The notes under the pieces: model-generated
Told to the model about the DNA's origin: nothing
The model's input: the letters and a program-made list of their open reading frames with translations, nothing else
The model's database searches: none
In this document: piece by piece, positions 2,096-62,524 of the stretch
Layout: every line of letters starts with the position of its first letter
How positions within the stretch are numbered: the stretch's first letter is position 1
Position numbers and translations under genes: made by a program
From: an uncultured bacterium
Lineage (GTDB): Bacteria > Bdellovibrionota > JACOXK01 > 2-02-FULL-40-11
DNA length: 64,000 nt
NCBI GenBank assembly: GCA_964392415.1
Contig: CAYMPL010000001.1
Location: 6,200-70,199 of the forward strand
Reading direction: 5' to 3'

Positions 2096-2947
2096 ATGAG
2101 AGAGAAGATGAAGCATTTTTTTCAAATAATAAAATTTGAATATTTTGTCTGGATTCTCTCGATTGTGTCTGTCTTTGCTCTGGCATACGACAATATCCGT
2201 CTCCATCTGGAACTTCTCGAATTTAAAGAGTCGCATCGGGGCTCCATTCAGATGGCATCTGAAATAAGAGAGCTCAAGTCCTCGGTGGCTGAAATCGATT
2301 CGGTTCTCAACAGACTCAATAAATTTTCATCTAAACTCAAAGTGCTTTCGCATATCAAAGATCAGTTTGAGGAGAGAGAGGCGATCAGGCAGGCGGCAAA
2401 AAGTACGCGCCGATCGACACGCGAGGCGGATCTCGATCGTGAAGAAGAACGCGACCTTCAAAAAATCCGGTTGCGGCTTCCTGATTTGCGATCTGAGTCC
2501 GATTTTCATGACAGAGTGCTCTTGGAATTGGTCGATTTTTATTCTCAAAGGCCGAATCTCGTGGCCGCGATTCCGGCCTTATTGCCTGCCCCGGGGCGTA
2601 TTACCTCGCCATTCGGTTTCCGGAAATTGCCGGCAGGGGGATGGCAGATCCATGAGGGGATTGATATTGCAGCCAATTTTGGAACAGAGGTCGTAGCCCC
2701 CGCGGATGGAATCGTTGAGGAAAGTCATTATTCACCCGGCTACGGGCGGTATGTTATTCTCAACCATGGCTACGGGCTAAAAACCAGATTTGCCCATGCT
2801 TCAAAGGTTCTTGTTAAAGCGGGGGAATGGATCAAGCGGGGGACACAGATTGCGCTGGTCGGCGGCTCTGGCCGCACTCGCGGCGTGCATCTTCACTATG
2901 AAATCAGCCTAAACGGCGTGCCGGTAGATCCTAGGGATTATATGTAG
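2096..2947 (+). CDS. M23 family metallopeptidase with N-terminal TM and coiled-coil region
   Basis: C-terminal HxxxD and HLHYEI motifs of the M23/LytM fold; RBS AAGGGGGA lies upstream of the ATG. Confidence 0.85.
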
Positions 2948-6070: not shown

Positions 6071-6463
6071 TTATTCATAAACAATGGCTGAGCCCGTGAG
6101 TTTTGTATGCCAGGAATTTTTAGATTGGATTTGAATGTCAATCACTGCATCGGCACCAGCTTTTCTTCCTTCTTCTTTGAGAAGCGGTACAACATCTTCA
6201 TAATCAACAGTCAAAAAAGCCATAGGAACAAATAAAAGAGCCCAAGACCAAAGCCAATTTCCTCCATTATCTTTCTGAGCGGTAATAACGCCCAGTTCTT
6301 TATATTTTACCTCATGGGGTGCAGTTCTATAAATTTCTACTTCTTGTCCTGGATTTTTTCTGGGATGCGGTCTTCCTGATGGCATAAATTTCGAAGAAGT
6401 AGCGCAAGAGAAAAGAAATAGAAGTATAGCACCTAAAATAATAAGTTTTCTTGGTTTCATCAT
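6071..6463 (-). CDS. Hypothetical lipoprotein (start trimmed to the MMKPRKLIILGAILLFLFSC signal peptide)
   Basis: RBS AGGAGGCT immediately upstream of the ATGATG at 6458-6463 (complement); lipobox LFSC; the longer ORF call to 6643 overlaps the HTH gene. Confidence 0.5.
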   Translation of the reverse strand: MMKPRKLIILGAILLFLFSCATSSKFMPSGRPHPRKNPGQEVEIYRTAPHEVKYKELGVITAQKDNGGNWLWSWALLFVPMAFLTVDYEDVVPLLKEEGRKAGADAVIDIQIQSKNSWHTKLTGSAIVYE

Positions 6464-7501: not shown

Positions 7502-8947
7502 CTAATGCCTGACCACACTCTCATACCGGTTTAATTTATTATAAAGGGTTTTAATGGTGATACCAAGGGCGGTGGCGGTTTTGGTTTTGTTTCCTTCGTA
7601 AAAAAAAAGGGTTCTTAGAATATGCGTTTTTTCTATTTCTTCCAAAGCGAGAATTGGCCCATGCGTCTCAGTTTCCATTTTTGTCGGCGATGTAAATTTA
7701 ATATGGTTTCTGATATCTTCAGTTGTTATCTCATCTCCTTCAGAGAGAATTTTTAACCGTTCCACGGTATTTTGTAATTCACGGATATTTCCAGGCCAGT
7801 CATATTGTTTGAGAAGTTCAATGGCATCCGGATGAATCTTTTTACCTTTGATCCTGCTCCAGGGATCAGGCTCCAGGAAATAATGAAGCAGTGGCTCAAT
7901 GTCTTCGATGCGTTTCCGAAGAGGGGGGACACGGAGCGTGATGGTATTGAGTCTGAAAAAAAGATCTTCCCGAAATTGTCCTTCTTTGACCTCTTTTTCC
8001 AGATCCTTGTTGGTTGCTGATATAATTCTCACATCGACTTTAAGAGGGGTTTTTCCACCCACGCGGTAAAATTCCCCATCCTGCAAAAAACGTAAGAGTT
8101 TTGCCTGAATCCCCTTTCCGGTCTCAGCAATTTCATCCATAAAAAGGGTTCCCCCATGTGCCGTTTCAACCAATCCTTTTTTGAGCATGTGTGCCCCCGT
8201 GAACGCCCCTTTTTCATGTCCGAAAAGCTCACTTTTTAAAAGATGTTCATTCAGTGTTCCACAGTTAATAGCAACGTAAGGCCCCTTTGCCCTTGAACTT
8301 TTTTCATGCAGACGCCTGGCAATAAGTTCTTTTCCGGTTCCACTTTCCCCTTGAATGAGAATGGTGACATGGGTCGGCGCGATTCGATCAATCATATTAA
8401 GCAATTGTTTGAGGGATTTGCTTTGCCCGATGATTTTGGTGGAGGGGATTTTTTTTCCGATGAGCGATTTTAGATTTTTATTCTCTTCTTCGAGATAGAC
8501 ATGCCGGTGTGTCAAAATGGCGATAGCGCACATATCGGCAATGGTTTCGAGAACCATTCGATCACCTTCGTCAAACGCAGCGGGACGGTCGCTTTCAACA
8601 TGGATAACGCCCAAAATCTTCCCCTGACACGCAATTTGCGCGGAGAGCTGTGATTGGGGTTCCGAGGGGGCTTTACCGACCTTTGCTTTTAAGATAGCCT
8701 CTTTTCTATCGTCATCGCGGATCCAGAGGGAGAGATGATAAAAATTGAATTCTTTCTGAACGAGGTTAATAATTTCATGATAGAGTTCATCGATGTTGGG
8801 CGCGGATAAAATTTTGCGGCTGACTTCATTCACCATTGAGAGATGCGAGGCAAAAAGATTTTTTTGGCTCAATCGCTTATCCTTGGTTCGTTTGAGATTC
8901 AGCAGGGGATTATCGAAGTGAAAAACAAATTGCAAGAAATTTTTCAT
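7502..8947 (-). CDS. Sigma-54-dependent transcriptional activator (GAF sensor + AAA+ sigma-54 interaction + Fis-type HTH)
   Basis: GESGTGKE Walker A, GAFTGA sigma-54 contact motif, C-terminal HTH; N-terminal GAF-like domain. Confidence 0.9.
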   Translation of the reverse strand: MKNFLQFVFHFDNPLLNLKRTKDKRLSQKNLFASHLSMVNEVSRKILSAPNIDELYHEIINLVQKEFNFYHLSLWIRDDDRKEAILKAKVGKAPSEPQSQLSAQIACQGKILGVIHVESDRPAAFDEGDRMVLETIADMCAIAILTHRHVYLEEENKNLKSLIGKKIPSTKIIGQSKSLKQLLNMIDRIAPTHVTILIQGESGTGKELIARRLHEKSSRAKGPYVAINCGTLNEHLLKSELFGHEKGAFTGAHMLKKGLVETAHGGTLFMDEIAETGKGIQAKLLRFLQDGEFYRVGGKTPLKVDVRIISATNKDLEKEVKEGQFREDLFFRLNTITLRVPPLRKRIEDIEPLLHYFLEPDPWSRIKGKKIHPDAIELLKQYDWPGNIRELQNTVERLKILSEGDEITTEDIRNHIKFTSPTKMETETHGPILALEEIEKTHILRTLFFYEGNKTKTATALGITIKTLYNKLNRYESVVRH

Positions 8948-11409: not shown

Positions 11410-11511
11410 ACAATTTTATCAGGTCAATGTTTAATATAAGTATTTGAAATTACTTATTTTTTATATAAATGCCTGTTGGCAGTTAATTTGCATGGATCTG
11501 CCAAAAGTCTT

Positions 11512-12201
11512 ATGAAAAAAAGGGGCATCATTATAATAGCCATCATTTCTCTGTTCGTTTCTATCTCCAAGGCGGCTCCTCAAGAGACTCAGGAAGAATT
11601 AACACAGGCCCATCTCGGTGAAACCGCCTTTTTACTGCGGAAAAAAGAACTTCTTTTAGGGCTTAGGCAAACAGCGTACGGAATTTTTGACTGGTTTTCA
11701 CTGGAGACGATTCCGCTTTATGATCTATTTGGATCGTGGAATATTTTTGGAAAATTAAAATTAGTTGCGATCGACCCTGTCAGTTTAGCGGCCCGTGCCG
11801 GTATTTTTTATCTGACGCTGGAAGAGCTTCCTGAAGCTCAGCCATCTTCAATGTACCGCGTCTATTTTGGCGGCACTTTATCAGCAAAAGTGGATGATTT
11901 CATCCATTATCATTTGAATATCAATAACACGAGCTTACATGGCAATATCATTTTTGGAAATGACATGATACACATTAAAAAACTTCTTAATATTGAAAAC
12001 GACCTTGAATATAAATTTAATGACCGGCGTTCCGTAGTGGGCGCCGCTGGTTATAATGTTTCAACCAAAAAGGTTTCATTAGGGGGGAGTCATGTGTGGA
12101 GATGGTCAACTTTTCATCTAAAGCTTGGACTCACCTTTAGAACAGGGATTTCCCGGGGGCTTACAATGCTCCCCTTCTTCGATCTTGGTATTCGGTTTTA
12201 A
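11512..12201 (+). CDS. Hypothetical secreted protein (possible outer-membrane beta-barrel)
   Basis: Signal peptide MKKRGIIIIAIISLFVSISKA; start trimmed from 11476 because a sigma-54-like motif occupies 11477-11492. Confidence 0.4.
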   Translation: MKKRGIIIIAIISLFVSISKAAPQETQEELTQAHLGETAFLLRKKELLLGLRQTAYGIFDWFSLETIPLYDLFGSWNIFGKLKLVAIDPVSLAARAGIFYLTLEELPEAQPSSMYRVYFGGTLSAKVDDFIHYHLNINNTSLHGNIIFGNDMIHIKKLLNIENDLEYKFNDRRSVVGAAGYNVSTKKVSLGGSHVWRWSTFHLKLGLTFRTGISRGLTMLPFFDLGIRF

Positions 12202-22899: not shown

Positions 22900-22999
22900 T
22901 GGCGGAAGTGTATGGGAATCGAACCCACCACAGACATAGAGACTATGTCTGTCACTGGATTTGAAGTCCAGGAAGTACACCAGAAACTTAAACACTTCC
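22900..22999 (-). tRNA. selC: tRNA-Sec (selenocysteine tRNA, anticodon UCA), 100 nt including encoded CCA
   Basis: Reverse complement reads GGAAGTGT (8-bp acceptor stem pairing with ACACTTCC), anticodon stem-loop CTGGA-CTTCAAA-TCCAG (UCA), long variable arm TGACAGACATAGTCTCTATGTCTG, T arm GGGTTCGATTCCC, discriminator G, CCA. Confidence 0.85.
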
Positions 23000-33448: not shown

Positions 33449-33486
33449 CGCACGTTTTTAAGCTTACCTAAGCTTAAAAACGTGCG
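33449..33486. promoter_or_regulatory. Perfect 17-bp inverted repeat (CGCACGTTTTTAAGCTT-ACCT-AAGCTTAAAAACGTGCG) between lgt and the ComM-like gene
   Basis: Read directly from the sequence; no trailing T-run, so it is a terminator or a protein-binding palindrome. Confidence 0.5.
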
Positions 33487-33527
33487 AATTTCTTGGCATT
33501 TATTTTGCACTGCTGGAGAAGGGGCAT

Positions 33528-35042
33528 ATGTACGCAATCCTTCAAAGTGGCTGTCTGAACGGTTTAGAGATTTCGCTGGTGCAGGTGGAAGTCGATCTGC
33601 AGAGGGGATTGCCATTATTTTGTATCGTCGGTCTTCCCGATCCAGCTGTGCGTGAAAGCAGAGATCGCGTGAGATCGGCCCTTAAAAACGCGCCGTTTGA
33701 GTTTCCGATGAAGCGAATTACGGTAAATCTTGCGCCAGCCCATCTTAAAAAAGAGGGGTCATCCTTTGAACTGGCAATAGCGCTTGGATTGATCATGGCG
33801 GAACAAGAGTGGGAGTCGGCCCCATTTAAACATTTTCTTTTTTTGGGGGAACTTTCCCTCAAGGGAGAATTGCAGCCGGTCAAGGGGGTTTTGCCTCTCG
33901 TTCTAGAAGCCAAGAGGAGAGGATTTACGACAGTTTGTCTCCCTTCTCAGAATGCTTTGGAAGCATCGGCTGTTTCTGGCATGACGGTTTATGCCATTCG
34001 CTCTCTTTCTGAAATCGTTCAATTTTTAAAAAAGGAGATCGATTTAAAGCCGACCCTTTTTGAAATGAAAGAGGAGAAGTCAGAGCATGAGCTTTTGGAT
34101 TTTTCTGATGTGAGAGGACAGAAGTGGGCTAAAAAGGCATTTGAGATTGCGGCGGCAGGGGGGCATCATATTTTAACGGTCGGTCCTCCTGGCTGCGGTA
34201 AATCGATGCTTGCGAAAAGGCTGCCTACGATCCTTCCCTCTCTCGGCTTTGAAGAGTCGCTTGAGATTACAAGAATCTACTCCGTGGCAGGTCATCTAAA
34301 AAATGGGGGACTTATTCGACAACGCCCCTTTCGGAGTCCGCATCATACGATTTCTTACAGCGCGATGGCGGGAGGGGGGCATCGGATGCTGGTTCCGGGG
34401 GAAGTCAGCCTGTCACACCACGGAATTCTTTTTTTAGATGAGCTTGGGGAATTTCGTAAAGAGGTGCTTGAAGTGCTTCGCGAGCCGCTCGAAGAGAGAA
34501 AAATTTCAATTTCCCGGGTGACCGGCAGAACTATTTATCCTGCGAATTTTCTTTTGGTCGCGGCGATGAATCCCTGTCCCTGCGGCTACTATAAAGATTT
34601 GAAAAAAGAGTGTCACTGCTCAGAGGTAGATATCAGACGATACCGTTTTAAAATTTCAGGCCCTCTTTTGGATAGGATTGATATCCATGTTTCGCTCTCT
34701 CAGCTTTTGGTGAAGGATCTTTCGGCGGCAAAAGACGAAGAGACATCCACAGAGATTTTAGAGAGGGTCGTGACAGCGAGAAAAATAGAGAAAGAAAGAT
34801 ATCAAAATACCCCCTTTCAAATGAACTCAGATCTCTCTTTAAAAGCGATTGAAGCATTTTGCCATCTCCGTCCGGAGGCGGAAAAGATTTTAAATCAGGC
34901 AATGGAACGATTTGGCTTAAGCCTTCGGTCTCGTCATCGGATTTTAAAAATTTCAAGAACGATTGCTGACTTGTCTGGGGAAAAAGAGATCTGCTCATCC
35001 GACATCGCCCAGGCGTTGCAGTTAAGGTTTTTGGACAGGTAG
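33528..35042 (+). CDS. YifB/ComM-family Mg-chelatase-like AAA+ ATPase
   Basis: N-terminal Lon-like domain, GPPGCGKS Walker A, zinc-finger CPCGYY block. Confidence 0.85.
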   Translation: MYAILQSGCLNGLEISLVQVEVDLQRGLPLFCIVGLPDPAVRESRDRVRSALKNAPFEFPMKRITVNLAPAHLKKEGSSFELAIALGLIMAEQEWESAPFKHFLFLGELSLKGELQPVKGVLPLVLEAKRRGFTTVCLPSQNALEASAVSGMTVYAIRSLSEIVQFLKKEIDLKPTLFEMKEEKSEHELLDFSDVRGQKWAKKAFEIAAAGGHHILTVGPPGCGKSMLAKRLPTILPSLGFEESLEITRIYSVAGHLKNGGLIRQRPFRSPHHTISYSAMAGGGHRMLVPGEVSLSHHGILFLDELGEFRKEVLEVLREPLEERKISISRVTGRTIYPANFLLVAAMNPCPCGYYKDLKKECHCSEVDIRRYRFKISGPLLDRIDIHVSLSQLLVKDLSAAKDEETSTEILERVVTARKIEKERYQNTPFQMNSDLSLKAIEAFCHLRPEAEKILNQAMERFGLSLRSRHRILKISRTIADLSGEKEICSSDIAQALQLRFLDR

Positions 35043-47156: not shown

Positions 47157-47685
47157 ACGAATTATCTATGATGGTACCCAGCTTGCCCCTCATTGGATCT
47201 ATAAAAACTTCGATATCTTAGGCGATGCCATCGTCGGCTTTATAGGACCTGCGGATGTCCCGCTCAAAAATATGGTCGATCTCGAGGATGTAAAATCCCA
47301 AAGCCCGATCTATTCCGAACTGATGCTTCATTTTATCGCTGAGTTTTTTGACACCGATCTCGAAAAAGCGATTTATCGCCAGCGGCTTCTCATGGTAATT
47401 ATGAAAGAATGTTTAGAAAAAAGGATTGGAAAAAGTCTTCAAAGACGAGGCGACGATCTTTTTGATGGAAAGAGAAAGCTCACCGTATCGATCGCAACAG
47501 CGTCGCCGGTTTCAGCGCTGATCCATGCGGGGATCAATATTAAGTCAAAAAACACCCCTGTCTTAACAGCGGGTTTGATTGATTATCAGCTTTCGGCAAA
47601 GTCTTTAGCTCTTGAAATTGTCTCTCTTTTCAAAAGAGAATGTGATTCGATTTGGAAAGCAAGATGCAAGGTTCAGGCAAGATAG
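47125..47685 (+). CDS. Conserved hypothetical protein embedded in the queuosine gene cluster
   Basis: 186 aa, overlaps the queC end; no recognisable radical-SAM (QueE) or QueF motif. Confidence 0.4.
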   Translation: MKIVQTKFINKRIIYDGTQLAPHWIYKNFDILGDAIVGFIGPADVPLKNMVDLEDVKSQSPIYSELMLHFIAEFFDTDLEKAIYRQRLLMVIMKECLEKRIGKSLQRRGDDLFDGKRKLTVSIATASPVSALIHAGINIKSKNTPVLTAGLIDYQLSAKSLALEIVSLFKRECDSIWKARCKVQAR

Positions 47686-47738: not shown

Positions 47739-48689
47739 TCACAAATCTTCCTCGATCTCATAATACTGGGTCACAAAGCTTGTCAGAAGATCTACGATCA
47801 ACTCCCGTATGACCGCCCTTTTTAAAGTCTTTTTGACTTTAAAATTCCCCTTTCCCTTTTCATTTTTTTCTATCTCTATATTTACGAGGTCATTTAGAAG
47901 CGGTTCATAATCGACTGGTATAATGGTATTGTCAACATTAACTCTAAAGATTGCCTTATCAAAACCACTCTCTTTCGGTTGGAGAATGGTCTTCCCATTT
48001 TCCTTAACCTCTTCCCAAACGCTCTTTAAGTGATAATGTTTTCCAAAAAAATGATAAAAATTTACGTAAATATCATCCAGAAGTTCTTTTATACCTGAAA
48101 CATCTTTTTCTTTGACCAGGAGATCGGCGGCATGATGAAAATCCTTCAATTTTTGAGCGTCGAGAATCGGTTCTGAAGTAAAGTAGCGAATCGTTTCCAT
48201 GAGAAGATCTTCATTTTGAATGATTTCAATCAAGGCATTTCTGGCTTCATGCCTGTTGTATTTAAGTGTTAAAATCTCAAGTAATTTCCCAATGGTATCT
48301 TCTTTTCCTCCTTTCAAATACGACTTTGTTTCTTTAGAATCTGTTTTCCAATCGTAGGCCATGCGGAGCGCGGTTGCGAATGAAGAAAGAGTCATGGTGC
48401 GATCATTTGCCAGGTTCGAGAATTTCAAGTGATCAATAATTCGGGTTAATCCGTATTTATTAAGACCTAATTTGGCAAGAGAAAAATCCTCTGCCAGGGG
48501 AGAGAAGTTTGCGACGTTATTCAAATCAGATTTAACTTTAGGATTATTTGGAGGATTATTTGAATGATTATCCCCCGCCTGATTGTTTAGATTGTTTGAT
48601 TGGAGGGGGGGCTCAGATGGAGAACAGCCTAACATCAAAAGACATAAAAATATAATATAATTTTTCCCCATTGTTAGTTTCACCATCAT
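47739..48689 (-). CDS. Hypothetical lipoprotein (partner of the Met-zincin)
   Basis: Lipobox LLMLGCS; ATGA overlap with the upstream metalloprotease gene. Confidence 0.4.
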   Translation of the reverse strand: MMVKLTMGKNYIIFLCLLMLGCSPSEPPLQSNNLNNQAGDNHSNNPPNNPKVKSDLNNVANFSPLAEDFSLAKLGLNKYGLTRIIDHLKFSNLANDRTMTLSSFATALRMAYDWKTDSKETKSYLKGGKEDTIGKLLEILTLKYNRHEARNALIEIIQNEDLLMETIRYFTSEPILDAQKLKDFHHAADLLVKEKDVSGIKELLDDIYVNFYHFFGKHYHLKSVWEEVKENGKTILQPKESGFDKAIFRVNVDNTIIPVDYEPLLNDLVNIEIEKNEKGKGNFKVKKTLKRAVIRELIVDLLTSFVTQYYEIEEDL

Positions 48690-51600
48690 TAGTCCAATGA
48701 AATAGATTTGTTATTATAAAGATAATGTATCATCTCAATCCTCTGCCGATAGGCGTTCAAAGATCTTTTTACAATATTTAATCTTGAAATAATATTGCTC
48801 TCTGGATTTTCTGGATCCAATTCCTTTTCTTTCTCTTTCAGCTTCTCCATGAGTTTTTCTTTATTATCGTAAAGAGAAATTCCAGGCAATACTGTATTTA
48901 ATTCATTGAGATATTCTCTAAGACTGCTGAGTATACCTTTGGCAGGGAGTTCTTTATTTGCTTTTTCGATGATTGAATTAAGTTTTGCTATCATATTAGC
49001 TTTTTCATCTTCATCAAGCAGGAGAATTACCCGTGTAGGGCTGCTTTCTTTTGTAATCATGATCACCGCAGGATGAATAAGGGGGTTTAGCGCCATAATA
49101 TGCTCCTCCGTGATATTGGATAAATCTTCTGCCAGATTCTGGATCAGGGAAATAGCTTTCTTAACCTCTTTTAAAGAGAGGGAGGTCAATTTCTGAAAAA
49201 TTTTATTATATGCCTCGATGAGCGTATAGGTCGGTGTTGTCGGATATGCCAAAACCGCCTCTTTTTTAGCTGAAAAAATTTTTCCTTTTTCATGGTCTAT
49301 GAGAAATGTGTGTGGTTCATCTGCATTTAAAAGTGAAAGTCTTTGCAACTCTTCATCATTCAGCTCCAATTCATTGATGTTAAAGAATTCCGCTGCGTCT
49401 TCGGAAGGGCTTGCAAAGGCTGTTACCACTGAATCGCCTGAAGGGACCTTATTCATAAATCTTTGAATAGCCGTAAAGACAATGTCATTGGGAGTGGAGA
49501 TATCGGTAGCAACCGTGTAAAAGAATTCAAATAGTTTATCTTGGTAAAGAGGGAAGTCAAAATAGGTTGTCCTTAAGGCCGACCAGGGGTCGACGCCTAA
49601 ATTGCGAGTGCTAAGCGCATCTGCCGCAAGCAGTTTATCAATCCATGTTCCCCGGGCGAGAAGTTCATCTTCGCCTAGGAATTTGGGATGAATGATATCT
49701 TTATAGACCCGATCTTTATCGAGAATGATTTGGGTAAAGAAGTCAAAGCCGATGGCAGCCGCTTTTTCCAGGTCTTCCAGGAGTATTTTCCATTCATCTT
49801 CTTTGAGCGGTTCGTCTGTTAATGTTGTGCTCTTTGTTCCAACATGAATCTGGTAGTCTAAGAATTCTCTTAAAGGGAGGAAATAATAGTTGATCAGATT
49901 TTTACTATATTCTCTTTCAGCTTCCGGAGTATTTTTAAAATGGATTTTTTTATTTCTAAAGTTTCTGTGCGCATATCCATCATGATATTTTTTTACAAGA
50001 TATTCTGCGATTTTTTCAGCGCTCTCTCCGCGGTCCCAGTGATTGCAAAGAGGATCTATAGGGACGCTCTGATCGGAACAGAAGAGATAGTTTTCATGGA
50101 AGTCAAAATCGCCGCTAAATGCGTAGGCCAATGCCGCTTTGTCGTAAGGGCCTGGCGTTCCTTCCTCGCTGTCTTCGATTGCAAGGTAGTCCATTGCGGA
50201 TGATGTTTGAATCTTTTCAGAGATGTAATGTTTTTTATCGAGCGAGCCTTTGAAATTGTGAGCCAGACCCAAATTATGCCCCATTTCATGAACCAGTGTG
50301 TTGAGAATGATTTCCTGAAAGAGTTCTTCTTCTGTTTTTTTAAGAAACCACGGCTCCGCAGGAGCGCCCCCCGCAGGGGTTTCTTCCAGGGCAGGATAGT
50401 AACAGCGGTCAGAAAGGTTTTTATAATGATACAGGGCGCTCTCCAGCGTCTCGGGTTTTTTTATCTCTTCAAATATTTTTTTAAAGGAGGGGGCATACGA
50501 GCCCTCATGAATTAATTCAGAAATCGATTTTGTTGTATCAGGATTATTTGCATCAGGCTTCATTTGGGATTGCATGAAGTTCATCCTCTCTCTTTTTTCC
50601 AGGATATGAAGAACGGTCTGTTTGATATTTCCGGCGAATATATAGGTATCAGCATTTATAATTTCCCCGGTCAGTCCGTCGGCATAACTTGGGCCTAGTC
50701 CCAGAGGGCCCTTAAAAATCGGGTCTTCAATCCAGACGATAAAATTATGTTTAAGATCGCCCAGTTCTTCACCCGAGATTCCAGGGTGGTTTTCCTGGAG
50801 TTCAATCAGGGGGTTCCCTGCGATTTTCATATCTTTTAAAACCTCATTCCACCGGGCAATCACTTTTTTCACGAGAAATTTATATTTCTTAGGGAAATTC
50901 CGGGATAAAGTATATTTAATTTTTTTATTCGGATCCCAATGCAGCGCATATCTCTTTTCTTCCGCTTCATTGTATTTGTCGTACGATTTTATTTTTGTTG
51001 AAAAGATACCCACATGTTCTCTTAATCGTTCTGTATACAAGGTGGATTTAAAATTTTTATTTTCTTTTCTCTTTAAGAAGCTTGCTTTCAATTTTAAAGT
51101 GAATGTTTTCCCCGTTGATTCTTCACTGTCTGGCGCCTCTTTCCTGAATGTTTTTTGAACGACAAGATTTAAGGATTCTTCATCCTGATTTAAATCAAGT
51201 AGATCTGAACTTACTTCGGTAATATGGTTGAGATTTTCGTAAATTTTAAATTGAATAAAATCGACGGGGATTAATTTCAAGCGTGCAAAATTAATTTTTG
51301 CGTATTTTCTTTCATTCCAGGGGCGTTCCCTTTCTGTTTCAATTTCCTTGTGGGTTATTTCGTCATCGCCATTTTTTTCTCTTTCGACATCGACATGTTT
51401 TTCCAATGGAAAAACAAGGACCGGTTCCGCAAGGGAATGATCGTCTTTGTATCGGGGATCGATGGCATAAAGAGTCAGGTTATTTTCGCTGAATTCAAAT
51501 TTTGCGGATGCCGATGTTCCTGATGAATCCCCGAGATGGGTAATTCCGGTATCTGCCGAGGCTCCAACGACGGTTACTTTATAATAAAATTCTCCGTCTG

Positions 51601-51751
51601 TAAAAAAATTTTTTTCAAGTCTCTGAACTTCAGGCAGAATCTCTTTGACCGGCCGCTTTTTGGCGCATGATGGACCGACGAGAAAAATAAAACCAAGGCC
51701 AACAATTTGAAGAATGTGAGAATATTTTTTTATTTTCATATTAAAATCCAT
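48689..51751 (-). CDS. Large secreted zinc metalloprotease of the Met-zincin type (DUF4953-like), 1020 aa
   Basis: Signal peptide; TLVHEMGHNLGLAHNF HExxHxxGxxH zinc-binding motif. Confidence 0.7.
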   Translation of the reverse strand: MDFNMKIKKYSHILQIVGLGFIFLVGPSCAKKRPVKEILPEVQRLEKNFFTDGEFYYKVTVVGASADTGITHLGDSSGTSASAKFEFSENNLTLYAIDPRYKDDHSLAEPVLVFPLEKHVDVEREKNGDDEITHKEIETERERPWNERKYAKINFARLKLIPVDFIQFKIYENLNHITEVSSDLLDLNQDEESLNLVVQKTFRKEAPDSEESTGKTFTLKLKASFLKRKENKNFKSTLYTERLREHVGIFSTKIKSYDKYNEAEEKRYALHWDPNKKIKYTLSRNFPKKYKFLVKKVIARWNEVLKDMKIAGNPLIELQENHPGISGEELGDLKHNFIVWIEDPIFKGPLGLGPSYADGLTGEIINADTYIFAGNIKQTVLHILEKRERMNFMQSQMKPDANNPDTTKSISELIHEGSYAPSFKKIFEEIKKPETLESALYHYKNLSDRCYYPALEETPAGGAPAEPWFLKKTEEELFQEIILNTLVHEMGHNLGLAHNFKGSLDKKHYISEKIQTSSAMDYLAIEDSEEGTPGPYDKAALAYAFSGDFDFHENYLFCSDQSVPIDPLCNHWDRGESAEKIAEYLVKKYHDGYAHRNFRNKKIHFKNTPEAEREYSKNLINYYFLPLREFLDYQIHVGTKSTTLTDEPLKEDEWKILLEDLEKAAAIGFDFFTQIILDKDRVYKDIIHPKFLGEDELLARGTWIDKLLAADALSTRNLGVDPWSALRTTYFDFPLYQDKLFEFFYTVATDISTPNDIVFTAIQRFMNKVPSGDSVVTAFASPSEDAAEFFNINELELNDEELQRLSLLNADEPHTFLIDHEKGKIFSAKKEAVLAYPTTPTYTLIEAYNKIFQKLTSLSLKEVKKAISLIQNLAEDLSNITEEHIMALNPLIHPAVIMITKESSPTRVILLLDEDEKANMIAKLNSIIEKANKELPAKGILSSLREYLNELNTVLPGISLYDNKEKLMEKLKEKEKELDPENPESNIISRLNIVKRSLNAYRQRIEMIHYLYNNKSISLD

Positions 51752-52529
51752 AGTTCAATCCGAGGAAGAGTTCGCTTCCTTCCACATCAAAAAGTTCAAT
51801 GTTTAATTCCTGACCATTGTTTTTATATTGCCGCCCCCCTGCGGAATGTCCGAGAGAAAGACCGAGGGCATCGGTTGCCTGATAATCCAATGATTGAACA
51901 AATGAGTAAGTTGCTTTTGGCGATTTATTATAAGTTGCGAAATTGAGGAGACTCCAGGCTGTGTTTAGCGCGAGTATGTCCGTAAAAGCGAAACCGATAA
52001 GCAGGGTATTTGTCATTCCATAATGTTTGTTAGATGTCCCATTTTTGGCTGTTCGGAAACGATTGGCAAAGTAGGTTCCCGAAAGATCGTACCCAAAATG
52101 AAATTGTGAAAGATCTTTCGAAAGCCCCAGCCCTGTTGTCAAAGCAAAGATTTGGCTTCGTTTCTGGCTCTCTTGAGAAAGAGGCAAAAAGAGTTTTCCG
52201 TAGCCATTAAGCGTAATCTCTGTCTCCGGATGGGTATAAATATCTGAAACAGAGGTTCCAACGACAGCATCTTTTAAGAAAGCTTTTTTCTCCTGGGTGA
52301 ACGATTTTACAAAACCGAGATCGAGTGTGCTTCGAATATGTTCAGCCCACTCGTATATGCCAATGACTGAAAAGTCATTATAGACATTTTTATGATTACG
52401 ATTGATGCCAGTCACAAGAGAGTTGGAAATGTTTGCAGAGAGCATACCGCTCTCATCTTGAGCCTTCACCGGTTGCCCAAACAGACACAACAACCCTATA
52501 AGACCCAATAGCCCAACGAATACCTTCAT
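51741..52529 (-). CDS. Outer-membrane beta-barrel protein (putative)
   Basis: Signal peptide with VKA-QDE cleavage, alternating amphipathic strands, C-terminal aromatic (LNYGF). Confidence 0.5.
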   Translation of the reverse strand: MKVFVGLLGLIGLLCLFGQPVKAQDESGMLSANISNSLVTGINRNHKNVYNDFSVIGIYEWAEHIRSTLDLGFVKSFTQEKKAFLKDAVVGTSVSDIYTHPETEITLNGYGKLFLPLSQESQKRSQIFALTTGLGLSKDLSQFHFGYDLSGTYFANRFRTAKNGTSNKHYGMTNTLLIGFAFTDILALNTAWSLLNFATYNKSPKATYSFVQSLDYQATDALGLSLGHSAGGRQYKNNGQELNIELFDVEGSELFLGLNYGF

Positions 52530-52835
52530 ACCCCTATAAATTGCAAGGGGTATGCCAAGGGATCAGGTGACAAAAATGGTCAGTTTTAAGCTTGAAGAGC
52601 CGACAAATCTACAGAGTTGTCCGAAGGAATCGACCTTGAGGGACGAAAATTGTCACCGGCTTTTGGCACTTTCTATGACAAAGAATATTTAGATATTTCA
52701 ATAGGTTATAAAAAAACTGAAACATAGCATGAATAATTTTTACGCATCTAATCGAGGACACTTTCCAATGAGCTTTAGAAGGCTAAAAAACGTAACCTAT
52801 GAAAATGACAGATTAAATTGAGTTTGTCTTTTCTT

Positions 52836-52851
52836 TGGTACATCGGTTGCA
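52836..52851 (+). promoter_or_regulatory. Sigma-54 (-24/-12) promoter candidate TGGTAC-N5-TTGCA upstream of the lipoprotein gene at 52919
   Basis: TGGTACATCGGTTGCA lies 68 nt upstream of the ATG, followed by RBS AAGGAGG at 52905-52911. Confidence 0.45.
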
Positions 52852-52918
52852 CACCATCCCCTTAGCTTCAGACAATCATGTTTGAAGCAACATAAGTACG
52901 TTTAAGGAGGTAACTACT

Positions 52919-53992
52919 ATGAAACGCACATTAACGATATTGGCTATCGCTGCGGCTATGATTACTTTTGTAGCTTGCGGTAAGAGAAGCCATGATGATC
53001 AAGGTGCATCACCTGAATCTACAGTTGTTCTTCCTACCGGGGATTATTCCGGTAAGCAAGAGATCGGTATTTTTAAGGTGGCTGCGACAACCGACGAACA
53101 CAAAAAGATCCTTTCTGATCTGAAAAAAGAGAGGATGGATCTTGAAGTGAGCATGAACAAGTGGTTCGACGATAATGAGGTCGATCCGGTCCTTCTTTAT
53201 CAAGGAAAGACAGTAACAATGCTCGATAAAGCGGTTACGGCTCGTCTTGAGGCGAACCAGTCAGCGATCTCTCGTCTGGATACTACCATTGCTGAAATCG
53301 AAAAAGAGTTGATCGATTTTAAGATCAATTTTATCGATTTCAAAGTTTCCAAAACGTTGGATGGAAACTATAAAGTATCGGGACTGAAGATCTTTACTGA
53401 CAAAGATAATCCCGCTTATGCCCGTGATGAAAATGGAAACATCATTCATTACAAGGGCAAGCCGATTATCTACGGTGAAGACTATCCCGGACATGGGAAA
53501 CATCAATTCATCCCCAAAGGATTTGTTTTTGGGTTGTCTGAATTGATGAATGAGGGCTCGATGAACTACCATGCTAAAAGCGGTTCACTTTCGTTTTCAG
53601 TTCTCAATAAAGGGGTGACATATGCCTTTATAGGAGAAGTGAAGACGGATGAAAAAGGCGAATCGGTCATTTCTGGAAATATGGTAGTGAGCGAAGAATC
53701 GGGAAAAGAGCTCCAGAGCGAACCTTGGAAAGTATCGCTTGTTTCTCTCCCAAAACCGCTCGGCGCCAAAGAGGATTTGGTGGTAACAGAACCTAAATCC
53801 GAAGGTATGGCTGCAGATGCAGGGGTTGCTAAGGTTGAGACATCTGGGTCTAAACCGCTCAGCGCCAAAGAGGATTTGGTGATAAAACAATCACAACCTC
53901 AATCCGAAGGCATCGCTGCAGATGCAAAGGCTTCTGATGAGCCTAAGGCATCTGGAAAAATGTCTATTAGGGAAGAAGAAAAGACAGAATAA
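52919..53992 (+). CDS. Lipoprotein with C-terminal tandem repeat (hypothetical)
   Basis: Lipobox ITFVACG; two roughly 33-aa repeats KPL(G/S)AKEDLV...SEG(M/I)AADA. Confidence 0.5.
   Translation: MKRTLTILAIAAAMITFVACGKRSHDDQGASPESTVVLPTGDYSGKQEIGIFKVAATTDEHKKILSDLKKERMDLEVSMNKWFDDNEVDPVLLYQGKTVTMLDKAVTARLEANQSAISRLDTTIAEIEKELIDFKINFIDFKVSKTLDGNYKVSGLKIFTDKDNPAYARDENGNIIHYKGKPIIYGEDYPGHGKHQFIPKGFVFGLSELMNEGSMNYHAKSGSLSFSVLNKGVTYAFIGEVKTDEKGESVISGNMVVSEESGKELQSEPWKVSLVSLPKPLGAKEDLVVTEPKSEGMAADAGVAKVETSGSKPLSAKEDLVIKQSQPQSEGIAADAKASDEPKASGKMSIREEEKTE
53753..53945 (+). repeat. Tandem roughly 99-nt coding repeat (2 units) in the lipoprotein gene
   Basis: AAACCGCTC(G/A)GCGCCAAAGAGGATTTGGTG... is repeated at 53753 and 53852. 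Confidence 0.7.
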
Positions 53993-54034: not shown

Positions 54035-54090
54035 GCATGAATGATAGAGCCAGGTTCTTAACAAAAGAGCTTGGCTCTATTTTTTTTTGT
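54035..54090 (+). terminator. Rho-independent terminator after the lipoprotein gene
   Basis: GATAGAGCCAG...CTTGGCTCTAT stem followed by T9. Confidence 0.6.
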
Positions 54091-55750: not shown

Positions 55751-56083
55751 ATCCCCCAGTGTCCCCCTTGCTGTCTATTGGGAGGTGTGCAGATGGATAT
55801 TTGCAGCAACTTCTGTGCCATGAGGGAATCAGGGTGTTTCATTATGTAACTGATTGATATAATTAAAAATTTAATATGATGGTTTTTGTCATGCTTTGTA
55901 AAAAGTTGCTAAAGCCTCTGGCAGTGTAAGGTTCTTAAACAAAAAACTATTGAAATGGAAATTAGCGCATGTTACTGTCCAAACTAGATTTGTTTTGTCT
56001 TCAAGAAGTGGGATTGCGGAAGTATAAATCGGCAGTATTCGTAAAAGGAGACTGCGCTGATTACGCAAATCAGTACGAATGTA

Positions 56084-56413
56084 TTGAAGTATACGCAAAA
56101 CCCAAAAGACGCAAAGGAGGTTGTTCTCTCCGCTGCGTTTAATGATTTTGATGAATTCCTCATGTCCTATTCGACGGACATACAGGGTGGAGGTCTGTTT
56201 ATTGAAGCAGATAAATTGCTCCCCTTAGGGAGTAAAGTTCGTCTCTACTTTACATTAGCATCGAGTCGGATTCCGATTCTCGAAGGATATGGTGAGGTAG
56301 TTTCAATTCAACGGGAAGACCAGGAAAATGTAGGAGGAATGGCGATTAAATTTTTTGATCTGAGTGAAAAGAGCAGACAACTTCTTTCCCGTCTGGTAAA
56401 GAATTTTCTTTGA
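56084..56413 (+). CDS. PilZ-domain-like small protein (possible c-di-GMP receptor)
   Basis: Roughly 100 aa with DIQGGGLFI (DxSxGG-like) block; the RxxxR motif is not obvious. Confidence 0.45.
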   Translation: MKYTQNPKDAKEVVLSAAFNDFDEFLMSYSTDIQGGGLFIEADKLLPLGSKVRLYFTLASSRIPILEGYGEVVSIQREDQENVGGMAIKFFDLSEKSRQLLSRLVKNFL

Positions 56414-56528
56414 AATGGCAACCATTTTTCTTGAAAATGTCCTTTCATTTCGATAAGCTCCTTCCAATTTGTCAGTAGAGCTTTTTAAACAGGTCTTGCT
56501 TTGTGTTTATTTCTTGGGAGGTTAAGTT

Positions 56529-59320
<2,792 letters not shown>

Positions 59321-59644: not shown

Positions 59645-59659
59645 TGGCATGAAGATTGC
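59645..59659 (+). promoter_or_regulatory. Sigma-54 promoter candidate TGGCAT-N5-TTGC upstream of the OMP gene at 59710
   Basis: TGGCATGAAGATTGC lies 50 nt upstream of the ATG; RBS AAGGAGG at 59697-59703. Confidence 0.4.
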
Positions 59660-59709
59660 CATGAAGCCCCCAGTACCTTAAAATTCATTTTAATCAAGGA
59701 GGAAAAAGT

Positions 59710-60576
59710 ATGAAAAAACTAGGTATAGTAACTCTGTTGGTTGTTTCTGCTGCTTTTATAGGGCATTCTTATGCCGAGCACCCAACAACTGAACAGCAAA
59801 CGGTTGTCACTGCACCCGAGGTCAAAAGTCCATGGTCTGTGAAAGGTTTTTTGAGAACCACTAGAACGGCGACTGGCAAACTTCAGGATGGCATTTCGAA
59901 CGAAATGTTTTTGGACGTTCGAAGAAGCGTTCTAGAAGGGGTCGTGAGTGGTCTTAGAGCCGGTGTCCGTGTGGCTGGTTCGAATAGGTTCAGAACAGAT
60001 CTTACAAGATCTGGCTGGGAAAAATATTACACCGTATTCGATCCTGCAGTGATCGTTGGTAAACCGCTTTTTGACATTGCGGGATTTGGTGGGGTAGGTG
60101 AGCTCAGATATTATGTTCCTGTGTCACCTGATAACCGTTTGTCTGATCGTAATCCGAGCAACGGTTCTGTGAGAACCATCGTTGCTGTCGAGAAAAATAT
60201 CGGAAAATGGACAGTAGGAACCTATAACTTTGTTCAACGTTATGCGTTCAAAAGCGAAGACAATGCCTTGAAAGAGTCATCTAACGCGAAATATCGACTC
60301 GCCAATGAATTGTCTCTTGCTTATCATGTTACCGATAAAGTTGCTTTGGTAACAGGCGCGGGTGTTGAGAAGTTCTGGATGCATAAGCCAAGCGATAATG
60401 CTGGTGAACTTGAATGGAGCACGGGCGTTGAACTGCAACCGGTTTCTGGTCTTACGGCTGGAGCGAGCGTTTTTCTCTCTGCACCGAACCAAGCGATTGC
60501 GAAATATCTTGAAACTAAAGAATCGAGACTTCAAAATACGGGGGCTCGATTGGATTTAGCTTATAGTTTTTTATAA
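59710..60576 (+). CDS. Outer-membrane porin-like beta-barrel protein (putative)
   Basis: Signal peptide with AFIGHSYA-EH cleavage, alternating beta-strand pattern, C-terminal AYSFL. Confidence 0.5.
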   Translation: MKKLGIVTLLVVSAAFIGHSYAEHPTTEQQTVVTAPEVKSPWSVKGFLRTTRTATGKLQDGISNEMFLDVRRSVLEGVVSGLRAGVRVAGSNRFRTDLTRSGWEKYYTVFDPAVIVGKPLFDIAGFGGVGELRYYVPVSPDNRLSDRNPSNGSVRTIVAVEKNIGKWTVGTYNFVQRYAFKSEDNALKESSNAKYRLANELSLAYHVTDKVALVTGAGVEKFWMHKPSDNAGELEWSTGVELQPVSGLTAGASVFLSAPNQAIAKYLETKESRLQNTGARLDLAYSFL

Positions 60577-60676: not shown

Positions 60677-61090
60677 ATGTTTATTCTTGAAAAGATCGAT
60701 CACATAGGCATCGCCGTTAGAAATCTAGCTGAATCCATCAAAACATACTCATTGATGGGCTTAAAGATCGGCAAAATCGAAGAGGTTCCTGCAATGGGAG
60801 TCAAAGTGGCATTTATTCCTGTCGGTGAGACCCGCCTCGAGCTTTTAGAGCCAACCTCCAAAGAATCTGTTGTTCAGAAATTTATTGAAAAACGGGGTGA
60901 GGGGATTCATCACATTTGTTTTTTAGTCAAAGATATTCATGCGGTTATAAAATGTTTAAAAGAGAATAATTTCCGGCTAATCTTCGATCAGCCGAAGCCC
61001 GGTTCCGAAAACTCACTTGTAACCTTTGTTCATCCACAATCAACCCACGGCATATTATTGGAATTTAAACAAAAAGCTATTGTTGGCTAA
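60677..61090 (+). CDS. VOC-family enzyme, methylmalonyl-CoA epimerase-like
   Basis: IDHIGIAV...H...E...GIHHICF...H...E metal-ligand pattern of methylmalonyl-CoA epimerase. Confidence 0.7.
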   Translation: MFILEKIDHIGIAVRNLAESIKTYSLMGLKIGKIEEVPAMGVKVAFIPVGETRLELLEPTSKESVVQKFIEKRGEGIHHICFLVKDIHAVIKCLKENNFRLIFDQPKPGSENSLVTFVHPQSTHGILLEFKQKAIVG

Positions 61091-61424
61091 TATATTTTGA
61101 AATTAATTTTCTATCTTGCGCGGATAAAGCTATAAATTTAACGCCAGAACCTGAAGGGCGAGACTCAGTTGAAATATGTGTAAAGGCAACTACTCCGTTT
61201 ACCGTAATTAATCGTGAGGATTTGGGGAGGGTGAATTTAAGAACAGAGCAGGTTTTGTCATTTGGCTTTGCGATTTTACGTTCAAGAAAAACCCCGCCTT
61301 CACTGATATCTCCCGCTTTGTAAAGAAAATAGTAGTCCCCATACTCTTCCCTTACCCACATATTAACTGAAGTCCTTCGATATGCGCGCCGTTCAGGCTG
61401 TTTCGAATTTTTTTTCTTCAGCAC
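61077..61424 (-). CDS. PilZ-domain protein (c-di-GMP binding)
   Basis: RRAYRRTSV (RxxxR) and DISEGGVFL (DxSxGG) motifs. Confidence 0.65.
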   Translation of the reverse strand: MLKKKNSKQPERRAYRRTSVNMWVREEYGDYYFLYKAGDISEGGVFLERKIAKPNDKTCSVLKFTLPKSSRLITVNGVVAFTHISTESRPSGSGVKFIALSAQDRKLISKYISQQ

Positions 61425-61583: not shown

Positions 61584-62264
61584 ATGTATCGGAATAATAT
61601 TCAATGGACGCTCTCAGGGCGCATGACCCCGTTGGTCAAAGCGCTGATCTTGCTCAATAGTTTTGTTTTTATCATCCAGATGATCTTTCATAAGTGGATT
61701 GGCATTGATCTAACGACGATGTTTGGCCTGTCGCCTCTCGACATTCTTTCCAAAGGCTATCTTTGGCAATGTGTGACTTATCTTTTTCTGCATGGGCATT
61801 TGATGCACCTTGTTTTCAATATGTTGGTTCTATGGATGCTGGGGGGAGAAATTGAAGAGCGTGTTTTTAAAGCTGTGGGATTTTTAAAATATTATTTCAT
61901 TTGCGGCATTGGGGCTGCCGTATTTAATGTGATCATTTCTTATCAGTCAGATATTCCGATTATTGGATCGTCGGGAGCGATATATGGAATTTTAGCCGCG
62001 TATGCGATTTTTTTTGGAAACAGACGGCTGATTTTATTTCCATTCCCTGTTCTGATCCCTGCGAAATATTTGATAATAATGATTGGCATCATTGAACTTG
62101 TGAGCTCTATTTTTTACACGAAAGATGGGATCGCGCATGTAGCTCATTTGGGAGGAATGGTGGCAGGTTTTTTGTATATTCGTTATAAAATCAAGGGACC
62201 ACCCGCTTGGTTTCGCCGTAAGAAAAAATTTGTCGTGATTCAGAGCAAAGATTATTTTACTTGA
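61584..62264 (+). CDS. Rhomboid-family intramembrane serine protease
   Basis: HLxxNM, GSSGAIYG catalytic Ser block, AHxxG His in the last TM. Confidence 0.85.
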   Translation: MYRNNIQWTLSGRMTPLVKALILLNSFVFIIQMIFHKWIGIDLTTMFGLSPLDILSKGYLWQCVTYLFLHGHLMHLVFNMLVLWMLGGEIEERVFKAVGFLKYYFICGIGAAVFNVIISYQSDIPIIGSSGAIYGILAAYAIFFGNRRLILFPFPVLIPAKYLIIMIGIIELVSSIFYTKDGIAHVAHLGGMVAGFLYIRYKIKGPPAWFRRKKKFVVIQSKDYFT

Positions 62265-62524
62265 TTTTTAAAATGTCGGCCCGGCCTGAACTTTGGCAGC
62301 TTTTTCTTGGGAATGGTGATTTCTTTTCCTGTCTGAGGATTAACCCCTCGCCTTTCCCGCCGCTTTCCAACACAAAATGTTCCAAAATCTATAAGACGAA
62401 CTGTCTGCCCCTTTTTAACCGTATTTACAATGGTATCCAAAATTCTATTCAAAATGCCTTCTGTCATCATTCTGGTGTGCTTTGTTTCCCGGGCCACTCG
62501 ATCTATGAGTTCCGCTTTATTCAT
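62252..62524 (-). CDS. hup: DNA-binding protein HU/IHF family
   Basis: 90 aa, MNKAELIDRVA...RNPQTGKEI...FKPG signature. Confidence 0.9.
   Translation of the reverse strand: MNKAELIDRVARETKHTRMMTEGILNRILDTIVNTVKKGQTVRLIDFGTFCVGKRRERRGVNPQTGKEITIPKKKLPKFRPGRHFKNQVK

Follow-up and report, generated by a model that had tools for sequence, protein, structure and literature searches.

The 64,000-nucleotide stretch of DNA analysed here (the window; positions 6,200 to 70,199 of contig CAYMPL010000001.1, from an uncultured bacterium placed in the Bdellovibrionota) appears to hold six sigma-54 promoters of the enhancer-dependent, -24/-12 type, which we call P1 to P6. From the motifs themselves and their recurrence in related genomes we put the probability of this reading at roughly 0.85; P2 is the weakest of the set, at about even odds. 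The promoters belong to a well-known class, and what is possibly a new twist is the leaderless arrangement predicted at P3. The promoters and the genes that they would serve are listed below, with coordinates counted from the first nucleotide of the window, scores taken from a sigma-54 matrix and distances measured from the TTGCW element to the ATG.

11477..11492, + strand: candidate P1 promoter, TGGCAG-ttaat-TTGCA, 14.0 bits, 19 nt before the ATG at 11512
11512..12201, + strand: predicted P1 target, a 229-residue secreted protein with a signal peptide and an outer-membrane-protein-like C-terminus (...GIRF)
33494..33509, + strand: putative P2 promoter, TGGCAT-ttatt-TTGCA, 15.8 bits, 18 nt before the comM/yifB ATG
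33528..35042, + strand: possible P2 target, a cytoplasmic YifB/ComM Mg-chelatase-like AAA ATPase (TIGR00368, 579.6 bits)
52542..52557, - strand: P3 promoter, TGGCAT-acccc-TTGCA, 16.7 bits, 12 nt before the ATG at 52529
47739..52529, - strand: predicted P3 operon, three genes with overlapping stops and starts
51741-52529, - strand: first gene of the P3 operon, a 262-residue outer-membrane barrel of 12 strands
48689-51751, - strand: second gene of the P3 operon, a 1020-residue DUF4953 Met-zincin
47739-48689, - strand: third gene of the P3 operon, a 316-residue lipoprotein
52836..52851, + strand: P4 promoter, TGGTAC-atcgg-TTGCA, 16.2 bits, 67 nt before the ATG at 52919
52919..53992, + strand: predicted P4 target, a monocistronic gene for a 357-residue lipoprotein with a C-terminal repeat
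55805..55820, - strand: P5 promoter, TGGCAC-agaag-TTGCT, a perfect consensus and the best match in the window at 17.4 bits
55460..55750, - strand: predicted P5 target, a small conserved cytoplasmic protein (open reading frame of 96 codons, start probably at Met21)
59645..59660, + strand: P6 promoter, TGGCAT-gaaga-TTGCC, 15.8 bits, 49 nt before the ATG at 59710
59710..60576, + strand: predicted P6 target, a 288-residue secreted protein with an outer-membrane-protein-like ending (...LAYSFL)

Exact matches to TGGYAY-N5-TTGC number six on the two strands of the window, whereas 100 shuffles of it that preserved dinucleotides gave 0.47 on average and never as many as six; the estimate of an earlier note on this DNA, that fewer than one such motif would be expected by chance, therefore holds. 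When the window was scanned with the matrix, eight matches of at least 13 bits were returned, where the shuffles gave a mean of 1.9 and a maximum of 5. All of the top six, at 14.0-17.4 bits, are intergenic, in a window of which 90.6% is coding (long open reading frames), and each is oriented towards a start codon 12-67 nt downstream. At every one of the six the GG and GC dinucleotides are exactly 10 nt apart; P5 fits the consensus completely, four sites depart from it by one pyrimidine change, and P1 reads TGGCAG. The density is six sites per 64 kb, with four of them inside 7 kb, and P3 and P4 are divergent, 280 bp apart.

Four of these motifs had been listed in the earlier note, and all four are present (P1, P3, P4, and P6 in the shorter form TGGCAT-gaaga-TTGC, 59645-59659), as are the AAGGAGG ribosome-binding sites that it reported ahead of two genes, namely the targets of P4 and P6. 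Two promoters were absent from that list, P5 (TGGCACAGAAGTTGCT) and P2 (TGGCATTTATTTTGCA). The four listed sites do lie within about 70 nt of the starts of envelope genes, as had been claimed, and the envelope label is correct for four of the six transcription units; the exceptions are ComM/YifB and the 96-residue protein of P5, both cytoplasmic.

We consider the promoters very probably real because five of the six (P1, P3, P4, P5 and P6) recur at orthologous places in related genomes, the loci of which are designated L001, L002 and so on, and where the encoded proteins are about 50-70% identical to those of the window. Conservation was compared for P1 and P3-P6; the single relative found for ComM, in a metagenome scan, is on a contig that has no DNA ahead of the gene. 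A scan of genome contigs contributed one close relative only. Across the relatives the spacer bases and flanking sequences diverge while the GG and TTGC elements stay. The P3 motif stands before the barrel gene in all five other loci, in which the orthologue of the P3 protein is 83% (L001), 75% (L004), 56% (L013), 50% (L002) and 48% (L003) identical, and when five loci are aligned over the P3 region every one of them has TGGCAT and CTTGCA, although only 44 of 194 window positions are invariant overall. The P4 motif is found before the lipoprotein gene in L002, L003 and L013, and in L001, there cut by the contig end; L002 has two lipoprotein genes, with one sigma-54 site each. P5 is kept before the small open reading frame in L002 and L003. 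At P6 the three loci have three different spacers, the relatives reading TGGCAC-aggta-TTGCT in L007 (67% protein identity) and TGGCAT-ataga-TTGCT in L008 (72%), and at P1 the GG-N10-GC spacing and TTGCA stay in L005 (TGGCCT-N5-TTGCA) and L011 (TGGCCA-N5-TTGCA). Synteny of the P3 operon is kept in L001 and L002, and a longer gene order of the window is kept in L002 and L003: histidine kinase, PilZ, small open reading frame, PhoH/PIN, lipoprotein(s), then the divergent barrel and zincin genes. One further exact match, TGGTAC-N5-TTGC at 47172-47187 (+), lies about 16 codons inside a DUF366 coding sequence, and we dismiss it as chance because its TTGC is lost in L001 (TCGC) and the motif is absent from L002.

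Two kinds of candidate site were recognised farther upstream, namely dyads that may bind an activator and sites resembling those of the integration host factor (IHF).

52640..52656, - strand: P3/P4 dyad GTGACAATTTTCGTCCC, between the divergent promoters; consensus GTGACAATTTACGTCAC (as in L003); candidate enhancer (upstream activating sequence)
52567..52583, - strand: weaker second copy of this dyad, CTGACCATTTTTGTCAC, 9 nt upstream of the P3 TGG; present in L001 and L004, not in L002 or L003
55905..55942, - strand: P5 upstream element, TTGTTTAA-N8-ACACTGC-N-TTAGCAAC, conserved; candidate enhancer, unlike the P3/P4 dyad
11437..11449, + strand: IHF-like site TAAGTATTTGAAA, ahead of the P1 TGG by 27 nt; the distance is unchanged in L005 and L011
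52696..52708, - strand: IHF-like site TAACCTATTGAAA, between P3 and P4, part of a 16-mer also found before P6
59583..59595, + strand: IHF-like site TAACCTATTGAAA, ahead of the P6 TGG by 49 nt; also kept in L008, and in L007 with a single change
55847..55859, - strand: IHF-consensus site TATCAATCAGTTA, which matches WATCAANNNNTTR in full and lies 26 nt ahead of the P5 TGG
62252..62524, - strand: gene for an HU/IHF-family DNA-bending protein (Pfam Bac_DNA_binding; scores of 76.9 bits for HU-beta and 69 bits for IHF-beta, neither of which reaches its equivalog cutoff)

Besides the -24/-12 elements and the start codon, the P3/P4 dyad is the sole conserved island in the five-locus alignment. Its distance upstream from the P3 TGG is about 75-110 nt, the conserved dyads at P3/P4 and P5 being 80-110 nt from TGG, and L002 has a further copy about 105 nt ahead of its second lipoprotein promoter. 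Allowing one mismatch, GTGAC-N7-GTCAC has three matches in the window against 0.49 expected; the third, at 22939, is inside a selenocysteine tRNA gene and is regarded as chance. In L002 the P5 element takes the form of an inverted repeat, TGTTTAA/TTAAACA. No conserved dyad was recognised in the regions upstream of P1, P2 and P6. Three other candidates were rejected. The sequence AAGCTTAAAAC, which lies upstream of both P2 and P3, shows no enrichment (five occurrences against 2.0 expected) and at P2 belongs to the lgt terminator hairpin; GGTGACAA alone is not enriched either; and a hairpin around the P3 -12 element, ACCCCT...AGGGGT, was dropped because L001 does not conserve it. After lgt, at 33449-33486 (+), comes a terminator-like hairpin with a perfect 17-bp stem; it ends 7 nt before the P2 -24 element, such that terminator and promoter abut.

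The IHF consensus of E. coli is WATCAANNNNTTR. The sites at P1, P3/P4 and P6 have the core TAA-N4-TTGAAA, whose complement, TTTCAA-N4-TTA, agrees with that consensus at eight of nine specified positions, and a 16-mer with this core, ATAACCTATTGAAATA, is identical ahead of P6 and between P3 and P4. In 121 kb of sequence (the window and its relatives) the core occurs 12 times, and eight of the 12 are found no more than 200 nt upstream of a sigma-54 site, in stretches that account for 2.4% of the sequence (26% of its intergenic part). Seven of these eight promoter-linked sites have the same orientation. The IHF-like sites stand 18-50 nt upstream of TGG, the distance being about 138 nt for P3 in the window. 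The P5 site persists at its place in both L002 and L003 as GTCAA-N4-TTA, and a full match to WATCAANNNNTTR is also present in L013. The HU/IHF-family protein is a possible partner of these sites. A strong sigma-54 site outside the window was noted in L011, at 2300-2315 (-), where TGGCATGAGCTTTGCT (17.5 bits) precedes the gene for a 659-residue secreted protein; an IHF-consensus-like sequence, AACCTATTGATTT, lies 17 nt upstream of it, and the P1 orthologue is 2 kb away.

A dyad, a bend site and a -24/-12 element together make up the textbook enhancer-dependent arrangement (PMC7057263, PMC2709558), and the mechanism that we propose follows from membership of this class. Sigma-54 RNA polymerase would bind each TGGCAY-N5-TTGCW sequence as a closed complex and would fire only when an AAA+ bacterial enhancer-binding protein, seated about 100-135 bp upstream of the predicted transcription start site, contacts the polymerase by way of a bend at the IHF-like site. 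P3 and P4 would share the dyad enhancer GTGACAATTTNCGTCAC and drive, respectively, the barrel, Met-zincin and lipoprotein operon and the monocistronic lipoprotein gene; P5, with its other upstream dyad, would drive the small conserved cytoplasmic protein, and P6 and P1 two further outer-membrane-type proteins. P2 may drive comM. The enhancer-binding protein encoded in the window, of the GAF type, most plausibly activates the nearby P1.

The gene for this activator lies some way from most of the promoters.

7502..8947, - strand: bacterial enhancer-binding protein with GAF, AAA+ (GAFTGA) and HTH_8 regions, given as the maximal open reading frame

Databases call a start at 8836 or 8872, giving a protein of 444-456 residues, and the 481-residue open reading frame has no exact match in the sequence collection. 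The protein carries the GAFTGA loop, as does no other in the window, and its Pfam matches are Sigma54_activat (1.7e-69), AAA_lid_14 and HTH_8. The N-terminal GAF domain that the earlier note ascribed to it has a counterpart in a match to GAF_2, albeit a marginal one (29.9 bits, with a cutoff of 28.6); the protein also aligns over residues 62-475 to the GAF-containing Aquifex structure 4l4u, and to a NifA chain. Since it falls below every NCBIfam equivalog cutoff (353 bits for NifA, where 529 are required), no named activator is its orthologue. The database relatives closest to it come from metagenome-assembled genomes labelled Deltaproteobacteria, Oligoflexia or Bdellovibrionota, and an identical 8-kb contig is part of a Hainich groundwater assembly. 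The window, L005 and L011 have in common the order activator, (DUF374), GH3 hydrolase, P1 gene, which is not kept in L012, and the activators of L005 and L011 are 59% and 57% identical to that of the window. It is because this order is kept in three lineages that P1 is most plausibly the activator's target, by association only.

The earlier note had gone further, and proposed that all of the promoters form one envelope regulon switched by this GAF-domain activator in response to a small molecule. There is something to be said for such a regulon: the activator is the only enhancer-binding protein in the window, most of the targets are envelope proteins, the link of the activator and GH3 genes to P1 is kept in other lineages, and the TAA-N4-TTGAAA sequence at P1, P3/P4 and P6 (P5 differs) could in principle be a common activator site. 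However, that sequence is non-palindromic and fits the IHF consensus rather than the dimer site of an enhancer-binding protein, while the palindromes that might serve as such sites differ, being GTGACAATTTNCGTCAC (GTGAC-N7-GTCAC) at P3/P4 and TGTTTAA...TTAAACAA at P5, with neither at P1, P2 or P6. The activator gene is 45 kb from the main cluster, and the corresponding cluster in L002, covering 17 kb, is without a nearby enhancer-binding protein; this and the differing dyads argue against one regulon. Two of the six targets, ComM and the small P5 protein, are not envelope proteins. The GAF match is marginal and allows no ligand to be inferred, and a small-molecule signal would follow from the type of domain only. 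With P1 alone linked to the activator, we find the single regulon unsupported and think it unlikely; probably several different activators are involved in the control of P1 to P6.

An alternative bearing on P1, P2 and P3 is that these sites bind sigma-54 holoenzyme without being promoters, acting through occlusion or as a roadblock, or being silent, and that the genes are read from elsewhere. Binding without productive transcription is documented for many non-canonical sites in E. coli (PMC4591121), and these three sites stand only 12-19 nt from the ATG; at P3, moreover, the weak AAGG/GGGG before the ATG could be the poor Shine-Dalgarno sequence of a longer transcript. Yet a scan for sigma-70 promoters gave no match in the P3/P4, P1 or P2 regions from which such a transcript might start, L003 lacks any Shine-Dalgarno-like string before the ATG, and the P3 dyad and IHF-like site stand at activator distances in six lineages. 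The distance from TTGCA to ATG at P3 is itself conserved (window 12 nt, L001-L004 13 nt, L013 14 nt), and a site that did no more than bind sigma-54 would not need it to be. We therefore hold non-productive binding at these three sites to be improbable. That the motifs arose by chance, or belong to sigma-70 promoters, is very improbable indeed: TTGCCA-17-TAAAAT does overlap P6, and the intragenic match at 47172 is evidently chance, but against this stand the excess of matches over the shuffles, the intergenic placement and correct orientation of all the top matches, their conservation at about 50% protein identity, and the loss of the key A (A2) of the P6 -10 element in L007 and L008 (TCATTT or TCAAAT) where GG-N10-GC stays.

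Several points weigh against our preferred reading, that P1 to P6 are sigma-54 promoters, and account for the room left for doubt. Neither an RpoN box nor an rpoN gene lies within the 64-kb window; we infer the presence of rpoN in the genome from the GAFTGA activator and from the RpoN-like sigma factor encoded by B. bacteriovorus (PMC3464611). The matrix is approximate, its frequencies being inexact values after a published compilation. P1 departs from consensus, with TGGCAG in the window and TGGCCW in the relatives. L001, L004 and L008 are close to the window, so that conservation in these loci weighs little. The enrichment of IHF-like sites is supportive and not proof, because the pattern was chosen after the data had been seen and orthologous sites are not independent. 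Finally, the positions of P1, P2 and P3 relative to the ATG imply leaders of 2-9 nt without a Shine-Dalgarno sequence, which is unusual for sigma-54.

The start sites predicted from the -12 elements are near 11503 (+), 33520 (+), 52531 (-), 52862 (+), 55794 (-) and 59671 (+) for P1 to P6. The short leader is most pronounced at P3. If the start site is placed 12 nt beyond the C of the -12 element, transcription at P3 would begin 2 nt before the AUG in the window, and the conserved spacing of 12-14 nt would leave a leader of 2-4 nt across six lineages; such a transcript counts as leaderless when the limit is set at no more than 5 nt from start site to start codon, as in the definition cited in PMC12754779. 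The signal peptide of the barrel protein (MKVF...) requires the ATG at 52529, and no usable Shine-Dalgarno sequence precedes it. The predicted leaders of P1 and P2 are about 8-9 nt long, that of P1 also without a Shine-Dalgarno sequence. We tentatively suggest, with the odds somewhat against us, that P3 may yield a leaderless mRNA from a sigma-54 enhancer-dependent promoter and, more broadly, that sigma-54 may be one of the main drivers of surface-protein genes in this lineage. In a literature search that was not exhaustive, no earlier case of a leaderless transcript driven by sigma-54 came to light. At 52515-52531 (-) the opening codons of the barrel gene are conserved as nucleotides: six loci share ATGAAGGT unchanged, and five share the 15-mer ATGAAGGTATTCGTT. 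Synonymous positions are among these conserved nucleotides, which lie where the P3 transcript is predicted to begin.

A stem-loop at the 5' end stabilises mRNA in E. coli, as in the 5' untranslated region of ompA. The lipoprotein transcripts predicted from P4 and its counterparts may have a comparable leader.

52865..52888, + strand: hairpin of 10 bp, which starts 3 nt after the predicted P4 start site at 52862 and resembles a 5'-terminal mRNA stabiliser

In the window, L002, L003 and L013 a hairpin of 10-15 bp begins 1-3 nt after the predicted start site, with stems that differ in sequence; the hairpins were folded one by one, MAFFT/RNAalifold having misaligned them, and the fold z-scores of the untranslated regions are -3.9, -4.4, -2.5 and -1.6 respectively. 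That the hairpins keep a fixed register with the -12 element is consistent with transcription from these promoters. They share with the ompA leader a hairpin 1-3 nt from the predicted 5' end of an mRNA for an envelope protein, and differ in that a stabilising role is suggested here by position and by conservation of structure in four lineages. Downstream of the hairpin, and just before the lipoprotein starts, there is a conserved sequence, GTAGAACGTTAAT.G.ACGT.AAAGGAGG (window 52890-52918 (+), L002 5427-5460 (-), L003 5682-5715 (-), L013 441-475 (-)), which could form a small ACGT/ACGT stem beside the ribosome-binding site. The P4 target gene ends at a strong terminator, 54043-54081, in which a 17-bp stem is followed by a T run.

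The arrangement has analogues in other organisms. Divergent sigma-54 promoters sharing one enhancer occur at zraP/zraSR of E. coli. Another such pair, resembling P3/P4, is orp1/orp2 of Desulfovibrio vulgaris, controlled by OrpR with IHF (PMC8359166), although no activator gene adjoins P3/P4. With the classical enhancer-dependent promoters nifH, glnHp2 and Pu (PMC7057263, PMC2709558) the present set has in common the -24 GG and -12 GC elements, a candidate upstream dyad (at P3/P4 and P5) about 100-135 bp from the predicted start site, an IHF-like site between the dyad and the promoter, and an encoded GAFTGA activator; unlike those promoters, it is known from sequence alone, its IHF-like core is mostly TTGAAA and not TTGATW, and three of its members are 12-19 nt from the ATG. 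The GAF, AAA+ and Fis-type helix-turn-helix architecture of the activator is that of other GAF-containing activators such as NifA and the NtrC-family protein of Aquifex aeolicus (PDB 4l4u).

That sigma-54 controls the bacterial exterior, lipoproteins included, is an established theme (Francke et al. 2011, PMC3162934). The sigma-54/CtcC regulon of Chlamydia trachomatis consists of membrane proteins (PMC7482065), and Rrp2-RpoN of Borrelia controls lipoproteins, according to work cited in PMC3162934. Since this theme is established and Bdellovibrio has an RpoN-like factor, P1 to P6 can be seen as ordinary members of their class. Their predicted targets conform to the theme in being mostly outer-membrane-type proteins, lipoproteins and a secreted protease; they differ in coming from a Bdellovibrionota-like groundwater lineage, in including ComM and a small cytoplasmic protein, and in matching no described family. 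The known mechanism of sigma-54 is unchanged by these results. What they would provide is, for a lineage without genetics, a group of sigma-54 promoters that have good support, together with candidate enhancers and IHF-type sites; they would also extend the exterior theme to uncultured Bdellovibrionota-like bacteria. They also mark a number of uncharacterised surface proteins as conditionally expressed (the FapF-like barrel, the DUF4953 zincin and the fast-evolving lipoproteins), and the near-zero leader at P3 and the 5'-terminal hairpins yield testable predictions on the translation and stability of enhancer-dependent transcripts.

Among the target proteins, the barrel of the P3 operon was modelled with AlphaFold (AF2) from 11 homologues (pLDDT 68.6, pTM 0.67) as a signal helix followed by 12 long strands, and the model best resembles outer-membrane barrels, namely FapF (TM 0.60-0.64) and also porins. 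The idea that the barrel might be an export channel for the Met-zincin protease is pure speculation. No relationship could be detected among the three outer-membrane-type targets (P1, P3 and P6), and that of P1 has no Pfam or NCBIfam match. The P5 protein is 65-77% identical to its versions in L002 and L003, where the neighbouring proteins are only about 50% identical; it has no match in Pfam, NCBIfam or the PDB, and a single-sequence AF2 model of it was unusable (pLDDT 44.8).

The promoter cluster is flanked by two stand-alone PilZ-domain genes and an orphan histidine kinase (56084-58043 (+), 61077-61424 (-)), which hints at a link to cyclic di-GMP; the order of PilZ, kinase and small open reading frame is kept in L002 and L003. 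An Rfam scan of the window at gathering thresholds returned two tRNAs only, and no known cis-regulatory RNA. The selenocysteine tRNA gene, at 22900-22999 (-), scores 71.5 bits in Rfam and is given the anticodon TCA by ARAGORN; it lies between genes for a subtilase and a TPR protein, without adjoining selA or selB.

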